A stretch of DNA of 28,015 nt from a virus. Its lineage: Duplodnaviria; Caudoviricetes. Both the position numbers and the translations under genes were made by a program. Positions 3,196-17,616 of the stretch are shown here, piece by piece. The notes beneath the pieces are model-generated. The model had not been told where the DNA came from, did no database searches, and was given only the letters and a program-made list of their open reading frames with translations. The stretch spans positions 1-28,015 of the IMG/VR virus record IMGVR_UViG_3300032212_000120. One strand, 5' to 3'. Each line of letters begins with the position of its first letter. Position 1 is the stretch's first letter.

Positions 3196-3555
3196 ATGCC
3201 CATGCGACCAGGCAAGCCATGCAATCACCCCGGATGTCCTGAAGTCGTGCATGACGCCTACTGTGACAAGCATAGAAAGCAGAAACGGCGCTATGCCAGC
3301 CGTAACAGGGAAAGCTCTACAGCACGCGGATATGGCTACAGATGGCAGAAGGTAAGGCTCAACTACTTACGTAGACACCCGCTGTGCATACTGTGTGAGG
3401 CAGAGGGAAAGATAACGGCAGCTAATGTTGTCGATCACATTAAGCCACACAAAGGCAACACATCGCTGATGTGGGATGAAGGTAACTTTCAACCGTTATG
3501 CAAGCATCATCATGATGTAAAAACTGCCACTCAAGATCATGGGTTCGGTAGGTAA
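3196..3555 (+). CDS. HNH endonuclease, packaging-associated (HK97 gp74-like)
   Basis: MP.RP..PC.HPGCP......YC..H, RGY...WQK.R..YL..HPLC..C, A.VVDHI.PHKG...L.WD..N.QPLCK.HHD.KTA. GGAG RBS. Located upstream of the terminase genes. Confidence 0.9.
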   Translation: MPMRPGKPCNHPGCPEVVHDAYCDKHRKQKRRYASRNRESSTARGYGYRWQKVRLNYLRRHPLCILCEAEGKITAANVVDHIKPHKGNTSLMWDEGNFQPLCKHHHDVKTATQDHGFGR

Positions 3556-3578
3556 CAAATAAATCACCGGGAGTATTT

Positions 3579-4487
3579 ATGCCTGATGCGGATAATGCTG
3601 CAGAGTTCGTCATGTCTGAAAGACGGTGCGAGCATTGCGATGGTGAGATATGGACTGCACCAAAAGCAGATGGAACAGCCAGGAAGAAACGGTTTTGTAG
3701 CACCACATGCGGCCACGTACACAGGAATGTTTCTGGAAAGACCAGAGAGCAGATAAAGGCTGAATACAAACAACGCAAGACCTTTACATGCCAGCACTGT
3801 GGTGAGCAATATGTGAATAAACGCACCCGCAATGATGGTGAGGGTGAGAAGTTCTGTGGACATGCCTGTTATGTTCTGAATCTGCGCTCTAACGCAAAAG
3901 AGCAGCCAGCTAAGTTCACCAAGATATACACGTGTGATTGTGAAATATGTGGGTCGATGTTCCTGTCCAAGACGGATCGCGCTACTTGCTCAAGCGAATG
4001 CCTCAAGGAAAGACAGAGGCGTTCTGCCACAGCTAGCTACTATAAGAAGTATAGGTTTGCCAACACGCACAGGGAATGCGCGCACTGTGGAATAGCGTTC
4101 TGTTCATTACCCGGTGTTGGTATCCGTGTATGTCCACCATGTAGCGAGCAGAAAGCCAAAGCAGATAAAAGGGAGCGCAGGTCTAGGTATAACCACACGC
4201 GCCGAGCCAGGTTGCGAGGATGTGCCGCAGAACCATTCAGTATTGAATCGGTTTTTACACGCGATAAATGGATGTGCCAGATATGTGGCGGCGACACACC
4301 ACAACATCTGCGTGGCACGATGCATGATGACGCGCCTGAGTTAGATCACATCACCCCACTAGCGTCAGGCGGTAGCCACACTTACATCAACACACAGTGC
4401 TTATGCAGAACCTGCAACATCCTCAAGGGCGCGTCTAGCAATGATGAATTTAAGCAGTGGAATCAAGGGGTTGCACGGGGCGGGTAA
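3579..4487 (+). CDS. second HNH endonuclease with multiple N-terminal Cys-rich zinc fingers (homing-endonuclease-like)
   Basis: Repeated CxxC...FCS..C modules. C-terminal RD.W.CQICG...PELDHI.PLA.GG.H...N.QCLCR.CN..KG. GGGAG RBS. Confidence 0.85.
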   Translation: MPDADNAAEFVMSERRCEHCDGEIWTAPKADGTARKKRFCSTTCGHVHRNVSGKTREQIKAEYKQRKTFTCQHCGEQYVNKRTRNDGEGEKFCGHACYVLNLRSNAKEQPAKFTKIYTCDCEICGSMFLSKTDRATCSSECLKERQRRSATASYYKKYRFANTHRECAHCGIAFCSLPGVGIRVCPPCSEQKAKADKRERRSRYNHTRRARLRGCAAEPFSIESVFTRDKWMCQICGGDTPQHLRGTMHDDAPELDHITPLASGGSHTYINTQCLCRTCNILKGASSNDEFKQWNQGVARGG

Positions 4488-8491: not shown

Positions 8492-8501
8492 ATTTAACGC
8501 A

Positions 8502-8515
8502 ATGCCGTGAGGCAT
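8502..8515 (+). promoter_or_regulatory. GTGA-tetraloop hairpin in the capsid gene leader
   Basis: ATGCC-GTGA-GGCAT perfect stem. Same core as the copies at 16201, 17132 and 17156. Confidence 0.6.
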
Positions 8516-8540
8516 CGCTATCCGAAACGGAGTAATTATC

Positions 8541-9725
8541 ATGAGTGATATGGCAAAAGAAGTCCTTGATCTGAAAAAGGTTGAGGAGGCAATGGTTGAG
8601 AAGCATAACGAGCTTATTGGCACAATCGAAAAGGCAAACGAGGAAGCTAAAAATGCTGGCTCTGTTGCCAATGAAACGAAATCTGCAATTGATGGAATTT
8701 CAGGACAACTGAATGACATTGGTGATCGCCTGCATGAGATGGAGCAGAAAGGCGCGCATGGCGAATCAACAGATGAAGCCTACGACATAGGCGCTGAATT
8801 TGTTAAGTCAGAGCAGTTCCAGGCATTTGCGGAAGGTCGCCAGAATGGCGCACGCATGGAAGTCAAGACGGCCATCGTGAATGCTACAGGCCAGAACCAA
8901 CCGCTTGTTGATTCTGACCGCCTGGGCGGTATCAATGCAACGCCTAATCGGGTGCTGTCTATTCGTGACATCATTCCCACAAGCCAAACAGACAGCAATC
9001 TGATCGAGTTTGTGCGTGAGAATGTGTTTACAAACAGCGCAGGCCCACAGTACAGCTCACCGAACTATGAAAACGTGGCTAAAGCTGAATCAGGCATCAC
9101 GTTCACCCTGGTCAATGAGCCTGTTCAGACGCTTGCCCACTTCCTGCCTGCATCCAAACAGGTGATCGCTGATTCTGCACAGTTGCAGTCATATATCTCG
9201 GGTCGATTGATGTATGGCTTGAAGCTGTATGAAGAAGCACAGCTTTTGAGTGGTTCAGCCGCAAGCGGTCAGCTTAATGGCTTGATCACTCAGGCAACCA
9301 GCTACACGGCACAGTCACCAGCGCTGACCAATGAGCTTGACATCATTCGTGATGCAATCAAACAGGCTCATCAGTCTGAGTACATGCCTGATGCAATCGT
9401 GCTGAATCCATCAGACTGGTATGACATTGAAGTTCGCAAGGTCGGGACATCTGATGATCGTTATGTTGTGGGTAATCCGCGCAGCATGATGGGGCCAACG
9501 CTTTGGGGTCTGCCTGTTGTTGTGACAAACAGCATCGCGGCCGGAACCTTCCTGCTTGGTTCATTCGGCATGGGCGCTGAGATCAAGGATCGTATGAACG
9601 CAACAGTGGAAGTATCACGCGAGCACAGCGACAACTTCACCAAGAACATGGTTACTATCTTGGCAGAAGAACGCATAGCTCTGTGTGTTTACCGTACTGA
9701 GGCATTCATTACTGGCTCACTGTAA
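8541..9725 (+). CDS. major capsid protein, HK97 fold with N-terminal delta (scaffold) domain
   Basis: Coiled-coil N-terminus; K.ES.ITF......VQTLAH....SKQV..DS.QLQSYI..RL.YGL...EE.QLL.G; TLWGLPVV; DNFTKNMVTILAEER.AL.VYR.EAF..G. Confidence 0.97.
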   Translation: MSDMAKEVLDLKKVEEAMVEKHNELIGTIEKANEEAKNAGSVANETKSAIDGISGQLNDIGDRLHEMEQKGAHGESTDEAYDIGAEFVKSEQFQAFAEGRQNGARMEVKTAIVNATGQNQPLVDSDRLGGINATPNRVLSIRDIIPTSQTDSNLIEFVRENVFTNSAGPQYSSPNYENVAKAESGITFTLVNEPVQTLAHFLPASKQVIADSAQLQSYISGRLMYGLKLYEEAQLLSGSAASGQLNGLITQATSYTAQSPALTNELDIIRDAIKQAHQSEYMPDAIVLNPSDWYDIEVRKVGTSDDRYVVGNPRSMMGPTLWGLPVVVTNSIAAGTFLLGSFGMGAEIKDRMNATVEVSREHSDNFTKNMVTILAEERIALCVYRTEAFITGSL

Positions 9726-9740
9726 TAGTGAAATAAGGAT

Positions 9741-9768
9741 GGCCGGGGGCAACCCCGGTCAATCTTTT
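9741..9768 (+). terminator. hairpin/weak terminator after the capsid gene
   Basis: GGCCGGGG-GCAA-CCCCGGTC followed by AATCTTTT. Confidence 0.6.
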
Positions 9769-9770
9769 CT

Positions 9771-10034
9771 ATGAGAGTAAAAGTTAAAGGCAATCCCATC
9801 ACACCATACGGATCATTTGCAGATGGCCAGGTATTGAGTGATGACAAGTATTCGCGTGAGTTCTTATCTCATCTTGTGAATGATGCAGGCGCAGCCGATC
9901 TGATTGAATATGAGACGAAGGTTGTTGAGGAGTATGAACCTGTAAAAAAGCCCCGATCTTCACGGTCATCGCAACCGGGCAAAGCCTCACAGAAAAAGAC
10001 GCAAGTTACGCGCAAGAAAAAAGCCAAGTCATAG
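9771..10034 (+). CDS. small post-capsid protein with a basic C-terminal tail (zero-frame product of the frameshift gene)
   Basis: 87-aa ORF directly after the capsid gene. Lys/Ser/Arg-rich tail after the slippery site. Confidence 0.75.
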   Translation: MRVKVKGNPITPYGSFADGQVLSDDKYSREFLSHLVNDAGAADLIEYETKVVEEYEPVKKPRSSRSSQPGKASQKKTQVTRKKKAKS

Positions 10035-10519
10035 CGGTCAATGATGCATGGCGAGTAATACCTGAAGCGCCGTATCACTATGCATGTGATGCTAAATGGT
10101 GGGATCTGTATTACCGAGAAGTAAAAGATGGTTTTCAGGGTCAATCATTCACGATAGATGACGATGAGCGACCTGACGTAAACCCTAAATCAGAATATGA
10201 CCTGGTTCGCCTCAAGTCAAAGCACGGCGAAGGGTTAAGTAAAAGATTTATCCACTACGGTTTACCCCGTGGCGGAAACTCAGGCTATCAGGCTGTAAAT
10301 CTGGCCTACCAGTTGGGTGCAAAAACTATCTTGCTGCTTGGGTTTGATATGCATGGGGCTCACTATTTTGGGAAACACCCGGATAGCCTAGTGCAGAGCA
10401 GTCCATTTCAAAAGTTTATCGAGTCATTTAAGACGATCCGGGGCGTTGAGATTATCAACTGTTCCCCTGATTCGGCGTTGACGTGTTTTCCAAATATGAG
10501 GATTCAGGATGTCATCTAG
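9771..10519 (+). CDS. predicted -1 frameshift fusion (~249 aa): post-capsid protein plus Maf/MptE-like (DUF115, sialyltransferase-like fold) transferase domain
   Basis: The -1 frame is open from 9938 to 10519 with no ATG/GTG/TTG until 10313. It encodes IFTVIATGQSL...VIAVNDAW...YACDAKWW...GGNSGYQAVNLAYQLGAKTILLLGFDM...HYFG.HP...EIINCSPDSAL..FP. Slippery A_AAA_AAG lies at 9944-9950 in the correct phase. Confidence 0.75.
9927..9980 (+). promoter_or_regulatory. -1 programmed ribosomal frameshift signal
   Basis: SD-like GAGGAG (9927-9932), 11-nt spacer, A_AAA_AAG (9944-9950), then a GC-rich possible stem (CCCGAT...ATCG..CGGG, about 9952-9979). Confidence 0.72.
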
Positions 10520-11066
10520 CGCACAGCAAGCAGAAATAAACAAATATGAAAACGTGTATCAGCATCCTAACTACAAGATGGGTGATGCGCGTATGCAATG
10601 CGCCCGTGACAACCTGACAGATTCCCCGTTCCGTAAGTCTTACCTCGATGTGGGGTGTGGCCGGGGTGAAATGCTTTCCCTGGCTAAAAGCCTTGGATAT
10701 AAGAAGGTCAAGGGCGTTGAGGTTGTATCTTATCTGATCGGCGGTGACGTTGTTCAAGGTAAGGCGTGGGATTTACCTTTTAAGAAAAATGAGTTTGAAG
10801 TTGTTTCGCTGTTCGATGTAATTGAGCATCTACTTTATGAGGATATGATCCCAACCCTCAACGAATTAAAGCGCGTTGCATCCAAGCAGGTGATTCTAAC
10901 TGCCGCAAACTATTCATCCAAATCACTCGGCCAAGAGCTTCATGTAAATCGCTTACCTTATGAGGTTTGGGATGAGGTTATAAAGGGTGCGTTTGAAGGA
11001 TGCTCGGTTGAATGGCTGCCCAGGGCGCACGGCACTAACTCTGAGACATGGGTGATCACACTTTGA
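10509..11066 (+). CDS. class I SAM-dependent methyltransferase
   Basis: YLDVGCGRG motif I, GVEV, LPF..NEFEVV..FDVIEHL. Confidence 0.9.
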   Translation: MSSSAQQAEINKYENVYQHPNYKMGDARMQCARDNLTDSPFRKSYLDVGCGRGEMLSLAKSLGYKKVKGVEVVSYLIGGDVVQGKAWDLPFKKNEFEVVSLFDVIEHLLYEDMIPTLNELKRVASKQVILTAANYSSKSLGQELHVNRLPYEVWDEVIKGAFEGCSVEWLPRAHGTNSETWVITL

Positions 11067-11857
11067 GGGTTGCCTTCTTTGCCGCTCCTGGCAAAGCCCA
11101 TCATTCACGATGGGGCGCAGCATTCCTAAAAGGACTTAGCAAGCACGGCATATACGCCAGCCTCCAGAGCATCAACGATGACATTGAGTGCGATGTGGCA
11201 GTGATGTGGAGCCACAAACATCGGGCCTTGATCGAAAGACAGAAGGCGCGAGGCGGTGATTACCTGGTTATGGAAGCCGGTTATTTTGGCGACCGTCTTG
11301 GCTTTGCCTCGGTTGGCTGGAATGGCCTGAATGGGCGCGCTGATTTTAAGAATCAGGACATGCCCGGTGACAGGTGGGAAAAGCACGGCGTTGATATTAA
11401 GCCTTGGCACAACGGCGAATATATTTTAGTTGCGGGACAAGTACAGGGCGATGCAGCGGTAAACGGCATTGATCTAAAACGTCGATACACCGAAATCATC
11501 AACCAACTCAAGACCATCACAAATCGTGAGGTTGTATTTAGACCTCACCCTTATAGCTCACCTATTCCTGATGGTGTGACCGTCTCACACGGATCACTCG
11601 AGTCAGATTTAGCAGGCGCAAAGTGCCTCGTTGCTATCAACAGCAATACAACGGTTGATGCAGCAATTGCGGGAACCCCCGTGGTTGCACTTGATGAGGG
11701 TTCGATGGCATGGCCTGTATCAGCGCATGAGCTTGAGGGCGTATTAATACCGCGCAGACCCGACAGGCACCAGTGGTTAAACAACCTGGCTTATTGCCAG
11801 TGGACAGAGAATGAGATCCGAGCGGGTCACGCTTGGGAACACTTGATCGCATATTAA
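11063..11857 (+). CDS. putative glycosyltransferase, capsule-synthesis (KpsS/KpsC-like) type
   Basis: YLVMEAGYF, YILVAGQV.GD, VVFRPHP, LE.DL..A..LV.INS...VDA..AG.PV match the E.G / Q...D / RPHP / INS..G.EA motifs of Capsule_synth-like transferases. Start is TTG 11063 (overlapping the previous stop) or ATG 11048. Confidence 0.65.
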   Translation: MRVAFFAAPGKAHHSRWGAAFLKGLSKHGIYASLQSINDDIECDVAVMWSHKHRALIERQKARGGDYLVMEAGYFGDRLGFASVGWNGLNGRADFKNQDMPGDRWEKHGVDIKPWHNGEYILVAGQVQGDAAVNGIDLKRRYTEIINQLKTITNREVVFRPHPYSSPIPDGVTVSHGSLESDLAGAKCLVAINSNTTVDAAIAGTPVVALDEGSMAWPVSAHELEGVLIPRRPDRHQWLNNLAYCQWTENEIRAGHAWEHLIAY

Positions 11858-11867
11858 ATACACCAGC

Positions 11868-12770
11868 CTTAAAGCCGAAATTATTGCCGAACAGTTCAGC
11901 CCTGAAACATTGCAGTTAATGACAGGGATGCAAGTCACTGATGAAGTGATGGAGCTACTGCGCAACGATCCAGCACGGTCATTTATGATCGACATCGAAA
12001 CGGACTCCACTATCGCCGCTGATGAAATGGAAGAAAAGCAGCGCCGCACAGAGTTCTTGGATTCAGTTGGTGGGTTTATGGAAAAAGCGCTCCCCGTTGT
12101 TCAAGAAGTCCCTGCAATGGGCAAGATAGCCAGCGAGATGCTGTTGTTTGCTGTACGTGGATTCAGAACAGGCCGCGAGCTTGAATCTTCGTTTGAAGAA
12201 CTCGCTGAAAGCATGGGCCAAGAGAAGAAAGGCCCGGATGTTGGTCAGTTAATGCAACAGGCCGAGCAGCTTCAGATGCAGAACCAAGAACTGCAAATGC
12301 AAAACCAACAACTACAGGAACAGGCTGACGCCAATCGCGTTAAGGCCGGTACAGATATACAGGTTGCTGACCGAAAACTGCAAGCGGCCAACATGGAAGC
12401 TGAAGCCAAACGCCTTGCAGACATCGAGATTGCCAAAATACAGGCGCAAGCAGACATCCAGATTGCTGCCATCAAAGAAGAGGGCGAGCTAGGCAAGGCT
12501 GCACAAGAACGCCAGTCAACGGCTGAAGAAAACGCCAACGCACGCGCAGAGATTGATAAAGAGATTGCAGATATACGTGCTAAGGCAGATGTAGAGATTG
12601 CCAATTTAATGCAGCAGTCAGAACAGGCCCGTGTTCAGCTTGAAATGGGGCCACCACAACCAGAAGTAAAACTTCCAGATGTAGTCATTAACATGCCATC
12701 CCCTAACAAAACCATCACCGTCGAGAAGAACGGCGACACCATGACCGGAAGGGTAGAAGAAGATGCTTAA
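11868..12770 (+). pseudogene. 5'-truncated C-terminal part of a podovirus-type (P22-like superfamily) portal protein
   Basis: LKAEIIAEQFSPETL..MTG, LLRND..RSF.IDIETDSTI..DE..EKQ.R.EFL..VGGF, EMLLFAVRGFR.GRELE and a Gln/Ala/Glu coiled-coil tail. The similarity begins before any start codon, just after the upstream gene's stop. Confidence 0.65.
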
Positions 12771-12791
12771 AACTGTCGAGGGATTCATAAA

Positions 12792-13232
12792 TTGATACGG
12801 CTTTATTTAACGCAATGGACTGAACCAAGCCCGAAACACGTCACTACACCTATACAGGATAGCGGACTGGATTTGCTACCCGCTAAAAACTTTACTGCCG
12901 CCGCTTATTATCCAGATGTGGATTTAGACGGTTACCCCGATACACAGTGGGTTTTAGTGGCAGTGGAAAGTGCGACAGCGATTGAATCAGATTTCACACC
13001 ACTGGAGTCATTACCAAATACCGCTTTGCTAGACCCCGAAGATTTATTCAAGCAAATCAAGAACGGTCGCAGAAACAGTTATCAGAACAAGTTGAACAAT
13101 GCCGGAATCATTGTGGATTTAAGTTCTGCAAGCACATTAATGGATGTTGTAACCCTAACTATTCAATCATGGAATCCAACCTTTCAAGGGTTTGGTCAGC
13201 ATATTGAAGATAGAGCGAGTGAGTTTGCATAA
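12792..13232 (+). CDS. hypothetical protein
   Basis: 146-aa ORF with a TTG start after GAGGG. TAATG coupling to the next gene. Confidence 0.65.
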   Translation: MIRLYLTQWTEPSPKHVTTPIQDSGLDLLPAKNFTAAAYYPDVDLDGYPDTQWVLVAVESATAIESDFTPLESLPNTALLDPEDLFKQIKNGRRNSYQNKLNNAGIIVDLSSASTLMDVVTLTIQSWNPTFQGFGQHIEDRASEFA

Positions 13233-13888
13233 TGGCTTTTACTGACGATTTTGATGGCGAAGGAACAGACGCTAATTTAGAAGATCATACACCGTCAGGC
13301 GGCACGGCATGGTCATTAATATCTGGCGGTGCTGGTTCAGCCAAATGTACAACAGCGGGTGAGGTTGAGGGTAATTCGTCAGGTGATGCGGAATACAACT
13401 GTGACGACCAAGCAGACGCCGACCATTACGCTATTCATCGCTCCAAACTACTTGGCTCATCACTTCCTGATTCATTCGTGGCGTGTCGTTTAGCGGACAC
13501 TAACAACTTTATAGGCTGGCGGTTATTTGGTAGTGGCGCGGCTGGCCGCAGACTCTCCAAGCGTGTCTCAGGGACTATCACCGACTTAATCACCTCACAA
13601 GGCGTTGATAAAGAGTGGATTAAGGTCGAGGTAGAAGGCTCTACAGCAAGACTTTATGAAGGCGGTACAGGCGCAAGCCCTTCATGGACTCAAGTTTCTA
13701 CCGACCAAACATTTTCAGACGACACCACCACGACTACACAAGGCTTGATGATCTCAAACGTCTATGGTGCGGCGGGGTGGATTGATGACTTTGAAGCTGG
13801 AGTATTAGGCGGCGGCGGTGGCGCAACCGGCAAATGTAACCCATTACACGGCCCCTTGGGCGGCCCACTCTACGGAGCAATAGCATAA
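13232..13888 (+). CDS. putative virion accessory protein with a beta-sandwich (ConA/lectin-like) domain
   Basis: FTDDF..., HTP.GG..W, IKVEVEGST.RLY, WIDDFEAG pattern. Gly linker and C-terminal NPLHGPLGGPLYGAI. Rich in Ser, Thr, Gly and Asp. Confidence 0.5.
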   Translation: MAFTDDFDGEGTDANLEDHTPSGGTAWSLISGGAGSAKCTTAGEVEGNSSGDAEYNCDDQADADHYAIHRSKLLGSSLPDSFVACRLADTNNFIGWRLFGSGAAGRRLSKRVSGTITDLITSQGVDKEWIKVEVEGSTARLYEGGTGASPSWTQVSTDQTFSDDTTTTTQGLMISNVYGAAGWIDDFEAGVLGGGGGATGKCNPLHGPLGGPLYGAIA

Positions 13889-15108
13889 TGCAATATTTAG
13901 GTGACTTCGCAGAAGATGCAACGGTATATATGCCGTTCAATACATTTAGCTCTGATGACCCTCAAGCATCCGTCACGATTACTAATCTGGCTGACGCTGA
14001 CATTAAGGTTTATAAAGACGGAAGTGTGACGCAAATCGTGACAGACGGCGCAACGATTGCGATTGATTTTGATTCCATCACAGGCAATCACTTAATCACG
14101 ATTGATACCTCTGCGCACGCCGACTATTCCGTAGGCTCTGACTACATTGTAAGAATTGAAGGCACGACAGTCGATGGCGGTACGATTAACGCGTTCATCG
14201 GAAGTTTCAGTATTGAGAACAGATTTGATAACGACACGGCCAAAGCATCCGCATTAACGACAGTCGATACTGTTGTTGACGGTATTCAAACAGACCTTAG
14301 TAACGCAACAGACGGGCTCGGGGCGATTAAGACCGCCGTAGATGCTAACGGCACTTCAATCTCTGGCCTTAATGATGTTTCAGCCGCTGATGTAAATGCT
14401 CAGTGTGATGCGGCTATTGAAACCTACGGACTCGATCATCTTATTGCTGCTGCCGTGTCAGGTACAGACATAACGGATAACTCAATCATTGCGAAGATGG
14501 TCAGCAAGTCAGCCACGGCAGACTGGGATTCATTCGATAATACCACTGATTCACTTGAGTCAATTACTGATTCAGGCGGCGGCGGCCTAACGCAGCAACA
14601 GGTGCGTGATGCGATGAAACTCGCACCCACGGCAGGCGCTCCGTCAGCGGGGTCTATTGATGAGCATGTTGACGACATACTATCAGATACCAACGAACTA
14701 CAGACCGATGATATACCGACAACCCTAGCAACACTCGCAACATCATCAGCACTAGCCACGGTTGATACGAATGTAGACGCTATACTTGTAGACACAGGTA
14801 CTGACATTCCCGCGACTCTGGTGACTATAGCTGGATACATTGACACTGAGATTGCAACCATCATCACGAACTTGGCGACTGTTGATGCTGTTGTCGATGG
14901 AATCCAAACAGATTTAAGCAATGGCACAGACGGTCTCGGGGCGCTCAAGACATTAATCGACACCCTGGACACAGTGGCCGATGCCATTAAAGCGAAAACA
15001 GATCAACTCGTATTCACTAAAGCGAATGAACTGGATGCTAACGTTCAATCGATCAATGGTGCGACGATTACAGGTGACGGCAACGGAACGCCGTTTGATG
15101 TTGTATGA
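13888..15108 (+). CDS. putative fibre/decoration virion protein (Ig-like N-terminus plus repetitive Thr/Asp/Ala stalk)
   Basis: Beta-rich N-terminal domain (DIKVYKDG, DFDSITG.HLI.ID). Repeated VD.VVD.I..D units. C-terminal DAIKAKTD.L.FT...LDANVQ.ING..I.G.G. Confidence 0.55.
   Translation: MQYLGDFAEDATVYMPFNTFSSDDPQASVTITNLADADIKVYKDGSVTQIVTDGATIAIDFDSITGNHLITIDTSAHADYSVGSDYIVRIEGTTVDGGTINAFIGSFSIENRFDNDTAKASALTTVDTVVDGIQTDLSNATDGLGAIKTAVDANGTSISGLNDVSAADVNAQCDAAIETYGLDHLIAAAVSGTDITDNSIIAKMVSKSATADWDSFDNTTDSLESITDSGGGGLTQQQVRDAMKLAPTAGAPSAGSIDEHVDDILSDTNELQTDDIPTTLATLATSSALATVDTNVDAILVDTGTDIPATLVTIAGYIDTEIATIITNLATVDAVVDGIQTDLSNGTDGLGALKTLIDTLDTVADAIKAKTDQLVFTKANELDANVQSINGATITGDGNGTPFDVV
14263..14952 (+). 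repeat. two 72-nt (24-aa) internal direct repeats at 14263-14334 and 14881-14952
   Basis: VDTVVDGIQTDLSNATDGLGAIKT versus VDAVVDGIQTDLSNGTDGLGALKT (21/24 aa identical, many synonymous changes). Confidence 0.85.
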
Positions 15109-15290
15109 GCCTGAGTGTTGCGGGTGTTTGGGCGGTCGATGTTTGGGATCAGACCGTATGGGCCGATGGTGTATGGCGTGAAGGCGAGCCAGTAATTACC
15201 CCGGCACTATTTAGAACAGGTCGCAATCGTGGAGCAAACAGTCATAACCGACCAGGTGTGCAGAGTCATTCCAGGGCGGGTGTCAGATAA
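15105..15290 (+). CDS. small protein with four VW pentapeptide repeats and a basic tail
   Basis: AGVW-AVDVW-DQTVW-ADGVW periodicity. ATGA coupling to the upstream gene. Confidence 0.6.
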   Translation: MSLSVAGVWAVDVWDQTVWADGVWREGEPVITPALFRTGRNRGANSHNRPGVQSHSRAGVR

Positions 15291-15308
15291 TATTCGAGGC
15301 GCAACTAA

Positions 15309-15905
15309 ATGAGTTACACACGAACAGTCGATCCAACCGTTGAGCCTGTCACGCTCGCTGAAGCAAAGGCGCATCTAAATGTGACAGTTAGCACGGATGA
15401 CACGTTGATCGGCGCATTGATTCAGGCTGCGCGGGAGCATACAGAGACATTCACTAATCGCGCCCTTGTGTCGCAGACGTGGAAGCTCTTGATGGATGAC
15501 TTTCCAGAGTGGGAGTTGCGAATATCTAAGCCGCCTCTGATCTCAATTACATCCATCAAGTATTACGACATTAATAACTCACAACAAACGCTTGTTGAAA
15601 ATACTGACTTTACCAAAGACAAGTTTTCACAGCCGGGGTGGGTTGTGCCAGGTATTGATGGCTGGCCTTCTGTGTATTCAGACGGGATCAATGCGGTAGA
15701 AATTATATTTGTGGCGGGTTATGAGGATTCAAGCGCCTCACCCGTTGACCTTGCGGATAAGATACCGCAAGCGATCAAAACCGCAATCCTATTGCTTGTT
15801 GGTCACTTATACGAACACCGGGAATCTGTTTCTGATTTTCAGGTGCATACCGTGCCGATGGGATATGAGGCGCTGCTTTACTCATACAGGATTTTGAACC
15901 TATGA
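15309..15905 (+). CDS. head-tail connector (HK97 gp6 / phiE125 gp8-like)
   Basis: EPVTLAEAKAHL.V....DD.LI..LI.AARE..E.FT.RAL..QTW, F.AGY, P.AIK.AILLLVGH.YEHRE. Confidence 0.92.
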   Translation: MSYTRTVDPTVEPVTLAEAKAHLNVTVSTDDTLIGALIQAAREHTETFTNRALVSQTWKLLMDDFPEWELRISKPPLISITSIKYYDINNSQQTLVENTDFTKDKFSQPGWVVPGIDGWPSVYSDGINAVEIIFVAGYEDSSASPVDLADKIPQAIKTAILLLVGHLYEHRESVSDFQVHTVPMGYEALLYSYRILNL

Positions 15906-17196: not shown

Positions 17197-17616
17197 ATGT
17201 CAAGTAACTCACTTGAATCACAGGGTATGCTGTTTCAAATTGGTGACGCTGCAAGCCCGGAAGTATTTACATCAATAGCAGAAGTCACAAGTATCAGCGG
17301 CCCAGGCGGTTCAGCGGCGGTTATTGATACGACTGACCTTAATTCAACAGCCAAAGAGAAGCGTATGGGGTTGTCTGATGAGGGCCAAGTGACGCTGGAT
17401 ATTATGTATATCCCTGCCAACACACAACATGCCTTGTTGCGCACTCGTCGCGCCAGCCGTGTGCTGACAAACTTCAAGATTATATTCACTGATAGCCCCG
17501 CGACTACTTGGAGCTTTTCTGGTTACGTGCTTGGCTTCACTGTCAACAATGCCGTTGATGCCACAACTAACGCCAGTGTCACAATTGAAGTCTCAGGCAG
17601 CATTACTGAATCATGA
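17197..17616 (+). CDS. major tail tube protein
   Basis: F..IAEV.SISGP......IDTTDL.S.AKE...GL.D.GQV, W.F.GYV..F, A.VTI.VSG. GGAG RBS. Confidence 0.9.
   Translation: MSSNSLESQGMLFQIGDAASPEVFTSIAEVTSISGPGGSAAVIDTTDLNSTAKEKRMGLSDEGQVTLDIMYIPANTQHALLRTRRASRVLTNFKIIFTDSPATTWSFSGYVLGFTVNNAVDATTNASVTIEVSGSITES

Follow-up and report, generated by a model that had tools for sequence, protein, structure and literature searches.

A predicted virion glycosylation cassette behind the capsid gene of a tailed phage, with a likely programmed −1 frameshift into its first transferase

Glycosylation of the virion is described for the mycobacteriophages Che8 and Rita (Freeman et al. 2023, cited by PMC11256854 and by PMC12619734). 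The locus considered here lies in a 28,015-nucleotide (nt) stretch of tailed-phage DNA (Duplodnaviria; Caudoviricetes; positions 1 to 28,015 of IMG/VR record IMGVR_UViG_3300032212_000120), the whole of which was analysed and is called the window below, and it consists of a small gene directly behind the major capsid gene and the three enzyme frames that follow. We lean towards the view that this cassette glycosylates the phage's own particle, its first enzyme likely being a −1 frameshift fusion to the small post-capsid protein; to judge from sequence and structural models the anatomy and recoding appear well supported, the predicted glycosylation chemistry being unproven. As in the mycobacteriophages, the phage would encode several glycosyltransferases, and its capsid and tail proteins would carry the glycans. 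In contrast to them, the hosts are diderm, the donors are predicted to be ulosonates activated by cytidine monophosphate (CMP), there is a methyltransferase and a likely frameshift fusion, and the system is known from its genes alone. The genes also lie inside the head operon, not near the 3′ end of the genome as described for Maravista.

The individual proteins have closer counterparts elsewhere. The first transferase resembles Maf (PF01973; Magnetospirillum, 5mu5) and the GT42 (GT, glycosyltransferase family) enzymes CstI and CstII in predicted fold and in the spacing of acidic and Ser residues. Unlike Maf it is a single domain of 190 amino acids (aa), as against 632 residues in 5mu5, and has no flagellin context, a small phage domain replacing the extra domains of Maf. 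It belongs with PHROG 4603 (P1 pmgO, P7 hdmB, D3 orf7, PAJU2 ORF010 and CcrColossus gp126-131), a family that bears the label ‘alpha-2,3-sialyltransferase’ and whose members are annotated as hypothetical or morphogenetic, the P1 and PAJU2 copies having their own start. The last transferase shares fold, QXXXD nucleophile motif and HP motif with KpsC (GT107), WbbB (GT99) and KrkA, but is a single module without membrane anchor, is 12-14% identical to them, and is encoded in a phage head operon instead of a capsule or O-antigen locus. Programmed −1 frameshifts are familiar from the phage tail chaperone pair G/GT, from dnaX and from A_AAA_AAG sites of the insertion sequence (IS) type. The present case would be like these in giving short and long products of one gene from a heptamer with an upstream Shine-Dalgarno-like site, and unlike them in that its longer product would join an enzyme to a protein of the head module. 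A small gene directly behind the capsid gene also recalls lambda gpFI, homology not being established. In the literature, subscription papers not included, nothing relevant was found on a frameshift-linked capsid glycosyltransferase, on sialyltransferases in virions or on 3-deoxy-D-manno-octulosonate (Kdo) on virions.

The window is a phage contig of 28 kb whose late region is lambdoid, whose head genes are of HK97 type and whose tail is that of a siphovirus. All features whose strand is given are on the plus strand. The major capsid protein, of HK97 type and a likely acceptor, is encoded at 8541-9725 (PF05065 Phage_capsid, E 3e-43; phrog_10), and a terminator-like hairpin (9740-9761, a consensus match only) that would reduce read-through from the capsid gene into the cassette stands 3′ of it. 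Four reading frames, not three, make up the cassette: the small gene (9771-10034), whose 87-aa product has a domain of about 55 aa, DUF7302/DUF7210/L9-N-like, and a basic Ser/Lys tail; a start-less frame for the Maf/GT42-fold transferase (9938-10519), in the −1 frame relative to the small gene; a class I S-adenosylmethionine (SAM) methyltransferase of 185 aa (10509-11066); and a KpsC/WbbB-fold, GT107/GT99-like transferase, identified by fold and motifs, that runs from 11048 or from a TTG at 11063 to 11857. The TTG, which overlaps the stop of the methyltransferase gene, is probably its start; the protein has 264 aa in the database record and 263 aa as a single module. The ends of the enzyme frames overlap from the Maf-like frame through the methyltransferase to the KpsC-like gene, and no membrane segment was found in the four cassette proteins of the window.

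An earlier note on this DNA had described three enzymes with overlapping ends between capsid and connector genes. The enzyme set that it caught and the overlaps stand, and the classes it assigned to the two transferases, Maf/GT42 and KpsC-type, are borne out by the fold searches and motif tests given below. As roles it had suggested shielding from capsid-sensing defences or proteases, or altered adsorption. Its count of genes, its boundary for the first frame and its adjacency do not hold, and neither the frameshift nor the small domain ahead of the Maf-like frame was noticed in it: the open reading frame (ORF) at 9771, which it took as the start of the Maf-like domain, encodes the separate 87-aa protein without transferase sequence, and the cassette is not directly beside the connector (head-tail) gene (15309-15905), from which it is separated by 3.4 kb that open with a podovirus-type portal piece.

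The Maf-like frame lies beneath the 3′ end of the small gene, and the first ATG, GTG or TTG in it comes no earlier than 10313, by which point two thirds of its domain have passed. At the entry to this frame stands a slippery heptamer, A_AAA_AAG (9944-9950), in phase with the small gene and a likely −1 frameshift site, 11 nt behind a Shine-Dalgarno-like GAGGAG (9927-9932) that may be a stimulator. The frame arrangement is the same in a strain 90% identical in DNA (L001/L086), and a contig at depth 321, which may be the window's own source, spans the frame break without indels or differences. A sequencing error behind the break, considered as a candidate, is ruled out by that strain and that contig.

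The relatives of the transferase, including those of P1, P7, D3 and PAJU2, were collected as 105 loci, after near-copies and L089 and L106 (no anchor) had been dropped. By rule, 51 of these have their own start, 41 are start-less and overlapped by an upstream ORF that is read in the +1 frame, 7 show both features and 6 neither. Within the stretch where the shift must occur, an in-phase X_XXY_YYZ heptamer is present in 32 of the 41 start-less loci, the two remaining phases having 7 and 9; from synonymous shuffles 10.1 heptamer loci in 41 would be expected, and 0 of 200,000 simulations reach 32. Among the 51 loci with their own start, the three phases hold 5, 6 and 4 heptamers. The excess recurred in loci chosen on the capsid gene alone, with 20 of 25 in phase where 6.2 would be expected and the two remaining phases have 8 and 9, or 19 of 24 when one repeated contig is removed; L280 (no anchor) and 6 loci already used were left out of this set, the anchors of L278, L287 and L313 are misplaced, and L287 repeats L014.

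The heptamers vary by lineage, with A_AAA_AAG, A_AAC_CCN, C_CCT_TTG, G_GGA_AAN and C_CCA_AAG all represented. One lineage has 12 loci in which the site encodes x-Asn-Pro; every one of them uses NNA-AAC-CCN, although x is any of five residues, and four further members are without Asn-Pro there. In phage D3 the capsid gene is followed by the small orf6.5, by the orf7 transferase frame that overlaps it, with C_CCA_AAG in phase, and by the connector gene; homology of orf7 begins about 80 nt before its annotated start, and an upstream GTG is a possible start of its own. L073 and L052 carry the small domain and the transferase as one continuous frame (2 clear cases of 28 extensions tested), and further in-frame fusions are P0232, P0200 and P0145 (3 of 9 extensions among 120 homologs), P0232 being kin to L052. 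Shine-Dalgarno-like upstream elements, a weak signal, occur in 17 of 37 loci as against 5.25 in upstream control stretches. Because of the in-phase heptamer excess in start-less loci and the natural in-frame fusions, the transferase frame is very probably entered by a programmed −1 frameshift at A_AAA_AAG. The predicted products are of 87 aa and, as the fusion, 249 aa, the first 60 codons of the small gene likely opening the latter. In two loci (L047:2921-3163, L068:2103-2345) the transferase is read in the +1 frame, and the small gene contains a conserved TTG preceded by a Shine-Dalgarno-like site.

The Maf-like frame matches phrog_4603 with E 1.8e-37, and 52 of 61 relatives of its domain match PF01973 at E<=0.01, the best at 2.6e-8. 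Its structural model (mean predicted local distance difference test, pLDDT, 94.7) has the variant GT-A fold of GT42. With Foldseek CstII (1ro7) comes top (E 4.3e-4, probability 1.0) and Maf is also ahead. A wide structure search gives Maf 5mu5 a Z of 14.4 (root-mean-square deviation, rmsd, 2.8; 165 aligned) and Cst-I (2p56) a Z of 11.8 (rmsd 3.7, 172 aligned), with GT29 enzymes at Z 9.5 and lower. Of the 61 relatives 60 retain Asp48, 59 Ser112 and 58 Asp134, and the intervals between these residues, 64 and 22, compare by spacing only with the 62 and 23 of the essential Maf residues; that three residues are required by a Maf enzyme, and that Maf can transfer both Kdo and Neu5Ac onto Ser/Thr, is reported in bioRxiv 10.1101/2020.06.03.131540. 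On these models the enzyme would work like Maf and yet is not filed as Maf, being a 190-aa domain from a phage head operon.

The KpsC-like model (pLDDT 96.9) has the reduced GT-B fold of KpsC and WbbB. Foldseek finds KpsC at E 7.9e-9, and rescoring of the Foldseek matches gives KpsC a Z of 14.5 (rmsd 4.0, 234 aligned), WbbB 13.6 and KrkA 11.6, ordinary GT-B enzymes following from 10.4 down. Pfam Capsule_synth (PF05159) does not match the window protein and matches 19 of 94 relatives at E<=0.01. The QXXXD and HP motifs are invariant in all 94 and align with those of KpsC 6mgd and WbbB 5fa0; in the part of PMC10148158 that defines the two motifs, the Asp of QXXXD is the nucleophile. Glu70 (alignment A2) is at least 90% conserved and by position would be equivalent to the general base Glu66 of KpsC. 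The methyltransferase has a motif I, DVGCGRG, and a Methyltransf_11 match (8e-11) of 42.9 bits over a cut-off of 21.2, and a Pfam search gave no match to any DNA-methylase family; it likely O-methylates the glycan, its putative substrate. Because of the folds and motifs of Maf/GT42 and KpsC/WbbB, both transferases point to CMP-ulosonates, and it is probable from the models that CMP-activated ulosonic acids are what they use.

Nearly all diderms make CMP-Kdo. The earlier note had a Gram-negative host and reliance on that host's CMP-sugars, and both fit what was found. The hosts among the 60 isolate matches listed are diderms, except for three records titled ‘Tetraselmis virus’ and an uncultured phage; among the genome bins with relatives 18 of 20 are diderm by title, and those nearest to the window (57-62%) belong to gammaproteobacteria or to alphaproteobacteria without closer placement. 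A set of 24 related contigs, of which 9 are at least 90% complete, yielded no CMP-sugar synthetase or NeuB, which is consistent with supply by the host. The donor is most simply host-supplied CMP-Kdo, a proposal that may as easily fail as hold.

Relatives of the PHROG 4603-type protein are numerous (3,719 among 8,000 scored candidates). The survey of synteny with capsid genes that the note had called for places the window-type capsid gene near 34 of the 41 start-less loci and the connector near 30 of them. Among the 105 loci a KpsC-like gene is nearby in 37, a methyltransferase of the window's type in 11 and a second Maf-like gene in 15, and other partners are GT8, GT2, GT9, GT4-like and FkbM genes. 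The cassette is modular, variable and widespread in the head operons of diderm phages. CcrColossus has a six-gene version (gp126-131) between a tail gene and the endolysin, and the members in P1, P7, D3, PAJU2 and CcrColossus are 28-32% identical to the window's Maf-like protein. P1 pmgO is non-essential under laboratory conditions (PMC10695390). The adjoining pmgP (L081:4492-5118) is a second MptE-like paralog, E 3e-4, an arrangement seen in 15 of the 105 loci. D3 and PAJU2 share two neck-region genes (L083:5879-7274, L084:5513-6905), a PF13489 methyltransferase and one without a name, which probably complete the cassette of these two phages. In GenBank the label ‘structural protein’ is given to PAJU2 ORF010 and to the copy in Eowyn. 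Three loci (L285:9507-12345, L288:2967-5895, L323:8628-9542) have post-capsid cassettes without a Maf-like gene and with GT2, GT31 or GT4-like genes; L285 and L288 retain the capsid Ser-Pro (SP) loop discussed below.

The small domain of the window matches nothing in Pfam or PHROG. Its family has 254 representatives, mostly stand-alone proteins of 50-160 aa, and 24 of 60 members scanned match DUF7302 or DUF7210 weakly (E<=0.01). All of its Atlas matches are below 0.9, DUF7302, DUF7210 and L9-N being leads only, and a search of solved structures brought up, besides noise from histone H2B, a GINS chain of archaeal origin (E 0.013) and L9 (E 0.73). The C-terminal domain of gpFI binds the head, and the small gene sits directly 3′ of the major capsid gene, in the position of lambda FI. 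gpFI is not among the 60 matches listed in the solved-structure search with the small domain, and a scan for lambda FI relatives returned near-identical copies only. In the relevant passage of PMC13595911 FI bridges capsid and terminase, and for phage TP901-1 a passage of PMC4493119 reports a proposal that a gpFI-like protein joins capsids via a −1 frameshift. It is quite possible, if a little doubtful, that the small domain would carry the priming enzyme to the prohead. In protein P0278 a GT-A-type protein is fused in frame ahead of a small domain, and its tail resembles the +1 reading of a Maf-like start, so that a three-domain product is possible.

Candidate acceptor sites may be discernible in the virion proteins. 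Small-residue-Ser-Pro is frequent in the capsid, connector and tube proteins of cassette phages. In the window Ser173-Pro174 (9057-9062) lies in a loop insertion of the capsid protein, which we take to be the E-loop, and the SP is kept in relatives as its flanks vary. Ser144-Pro145 (ASP; 15738-15743) is the candidate in the head-tail connector, and Ser20-Pro21 (ASP; 17254-17259) a weaker one in the tail tube protein, the GT-free relative L296 having GSP there too. The association was tried on 56 loci chosen on the capsid gene, blind to the cassette, with L291 and L292 left out (short flank) and GT status assigned by Pfam, 12 of 105 ORFs (long tail ones) being left out. The capsid SP loop occurs in 26 of 40 GT-bearing loci vs 1 of 16 GT-free ones, and small-residue-SP in the connector in 21 of 27 vs 1 of 14 (raw Fisher 6e-5 and 3e-5). 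GSP reaches 2.25 and 2.24 times expectation in the non-enzyme genes of two cassette classes, as compared with 1.09 in GT-free loci and 0.64-0.88 in the cassette enzymes. A second capsid lineage has GSP at the extreme C-terminus in 6 of 22, and in its capsid plus following genes GSP numbers 25 per 42,023 residues vs 3 per 29,945 (12 of 35 loci were left out of the second-lineage test as not having enough flank). As a proven sequon SP is rejected for now, the raw tables being strong and the independent pairs too few, and that small-residue-Ser-Pro loops are acceptor sites is offered from the sequences as a tentative idea.

Put together, some ribosomes would slip at A_AAA_AAG to give a minor domain-transferase fusion of 249 aa, whose small domain would carry the priming Maf-like enzyme to the prohead. 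With a CMP-ulosonate donor supplied by the host, that enzyme would prime Ser/Thr of virion proteins with ulosonate, a further ulosonate would be attached by the KpsC-like enzyme in a retaining reaction, and the chain would be capped by the methyltransferase, an order of steps that comes from known enzymes only. It is fairly likely that virion proteins are indeed the acceptors and that the three enzymes respectively prime, extend and cap; we infer the virion as target from gene position, co-occurrence and the candidate loop motif. A bolder version, in which a large group of tailed phages of Gram-negative bacteria, D3 included, are coated with methylated Kdo-type glycans, a conserved −1 frameshift joins a head-binding domain to the priming enzyme, this enzyme reads a small-residue-Ser-Pro tag on loops of capsid, neck and tail proteins, and a variable kit of transferases diversifies the coat much as capsule serotypes differ, is speculative and, taken whole, rather unlikely.

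A number of findings weigh against glycosylation of the particle as proposed, or against parts of it. The protein product, the enzyme activity and the glycan are represented here only by genes. The window is without a strong hairpin behind the slippery site (−6.7 kcal/mol; the downstream fold is stronger in some relatives), no perfect heptamer is present in 9 of the 41 start-less loci, and the relatives that enter the heptamer counts are not independent. The Pfam MptE-like match (PF01973) of the window protein, E 0.002 and 18 bits, is under the curated cut-off of 34.6, its model also matches the MptE/HPPK diphosphokinase 8sd5 (Z 10.7, rmsd 3.4, 142 aligned), and sequence searches with the protein and its profile against solved structures gave no transferase match. 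For the small domain against the C-terminal domain of gpFI, hhalign gives a probability of 5.7% (E 0.0066, FI 103-130), and 63 of 2000 shuffles score equally well. D3 and P. aeruginosa relatives pair the Maf-like gene with other partners, P1 pmgO lies outside a head operon, and a term search of the main text of the P1 virion-proteome paper (PMC9024508) does not find PmgO named. With independent pairs, of which there are 5 to 6, the association of SP with the cassette does not reach significance, the capsid loop insertion is largely that of one clade, and the capsid protein of the second lineage gives 7 of 14 vs 2 of 9 (p 0.23). In PAJU2 the transferase is present, but the structural genes that were inspected contain hardly any SP, and within the window by itself SP is not enriched in virion proteins over enzymes.

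Other explanations have to be set against these. The transferase frame might be read from a non-standard start codon of its own, the cassette otherwise acting as proposed. An ATC at 9956 coincides with the first strand of the model, L047 and L068 have their TTG and Shine-Dalgarno-like site within the small gene, and the GTG of D3 is 22 codons 5′ of a conserved Gly. However, this ATC, the sole well-placed one, is GTC in the close relatives L002 and L109, for which reason such a start is unlikely; the heptamer excess is moreover confined to the shifting phase and to start-less loci, and in-frame fusions occur, so that we hold this possibility to be very improbable. Scarcely to be expected, too, is that the Maf-like protein is no sugar transferase, and is instead a diphosphokinase-like enzyme or an idle morphogenesis or structural protein beside which the other enzymes act separately. 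Its model does score with MptE/HPPK (Z 10.7), SteA (9.6) and TPK (8.0), but Maf and Cst outscore these folds and Asp48, Ser112 and Asp134 are conserved at Maf-like spacing. Labels in GenBank, and nothing beyond labels, call its relatives ‘structural protein’ (PAJU2 ORF010, Eowyn) or ‘head morphogenesis’ (P7 hdmB), and D3-type loci carry the Maf-like gene alone behind the capsid gene; elsewhere it accompanies GT2, GT8, GT9, GT4-like and KpsC-like genes.

The remaining alternatives keep the enzymes and change the target. Glycans of the host envelope (lipopolysaccharide core, O antigen or capsule linker) might be modified, with superinfection block or serotype change late in infection or in the lysogen, and the closest solved relatives of the third gene's product, KpsC, KrkA and WbbB, do build capsule and O antigen. 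The position of the genes on the late strand within the head operon and behind a terminator-like hairpin, the lack of a promoter-like site ahead of the cassette (2 found in 4.6 kb, 4.9 expected), cassette proteins without a membrane segment and the tie of the first enzyme to a post-capsid protein all speak for a different target, and we regard an envelope function as unlikely. Equally unlikely in our estimate is modification of the phage DNA before or during packaging, or of a host protein to counter defence. Some glycosyltransferases of phages have DNA as their substrate (PMC12619734), and the window carries a dATP/dGTP diphosphohydrolase-like gene. Yet neither fold search has DNA glucosyltransferases near the top, the methyltransferase has no DNA-methylase family match, and a thymidylate-synthase-like hydroxymethylase is present in 0 of the 24 related contigs, the TET/JBP route not being searched. 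L9-N-like domains bind nucleic acid in ribosomes, which would suit a DNA target. The reading to which we lean remains glycosylation of the phage's own particle.

Several features of the window lie outside the cassette. A start-less C-terminal piece of a foreign portal (11859-12770, plus strand; phrog_12082 positions 523-700 of 715, E 7e-32), of the Brucella/Rhizobium podovirus type, opens at the KpsC-like stop a 3.3-kb block (11859-15215) that stands where the near relative L086 has head-fibre genes; the block also holds three unknown structural-looking genes of 146, 218 and 406 aa, and DNA identity to L086 is 90% before it and 71% after. An assembly chimera at 11859 was considered and set aside: a contig at depth 262 covers 11380-15350 without differences, though as it may be the window's source it is not independent, and the junction is read as a natural mosaic. 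The microbial-mat run also contains, over 8500-11400, a second strain at roughly half the depth. The dATP/dGTP diphosphohydrolase-like gene (114-464; PF18909, E 7.5e-33) is at the left end, any partners being outside the contig, and at 3196-4487 two consecutive HNH genes precede the small terminase gene, the second (302 aa) being rich in Cys-x-x-Cys repeats.

If the proposal is right, virion glycosylation would be a common and variable trait of Gram-negative phages and not a mycobacteriophage oddity, and coat sugars, Kdo or sialic-acid-like, would shape recognition by antibodies, host defences and surfaces. P1 pmgO, P7 hdmB, D3 orf7 and with them PHROG 4603 would acquire a function, very small protein- and Kdo-transferases would be gained, and the head module would be seen to hold a conserved frameshift whose product current annotation truncates.

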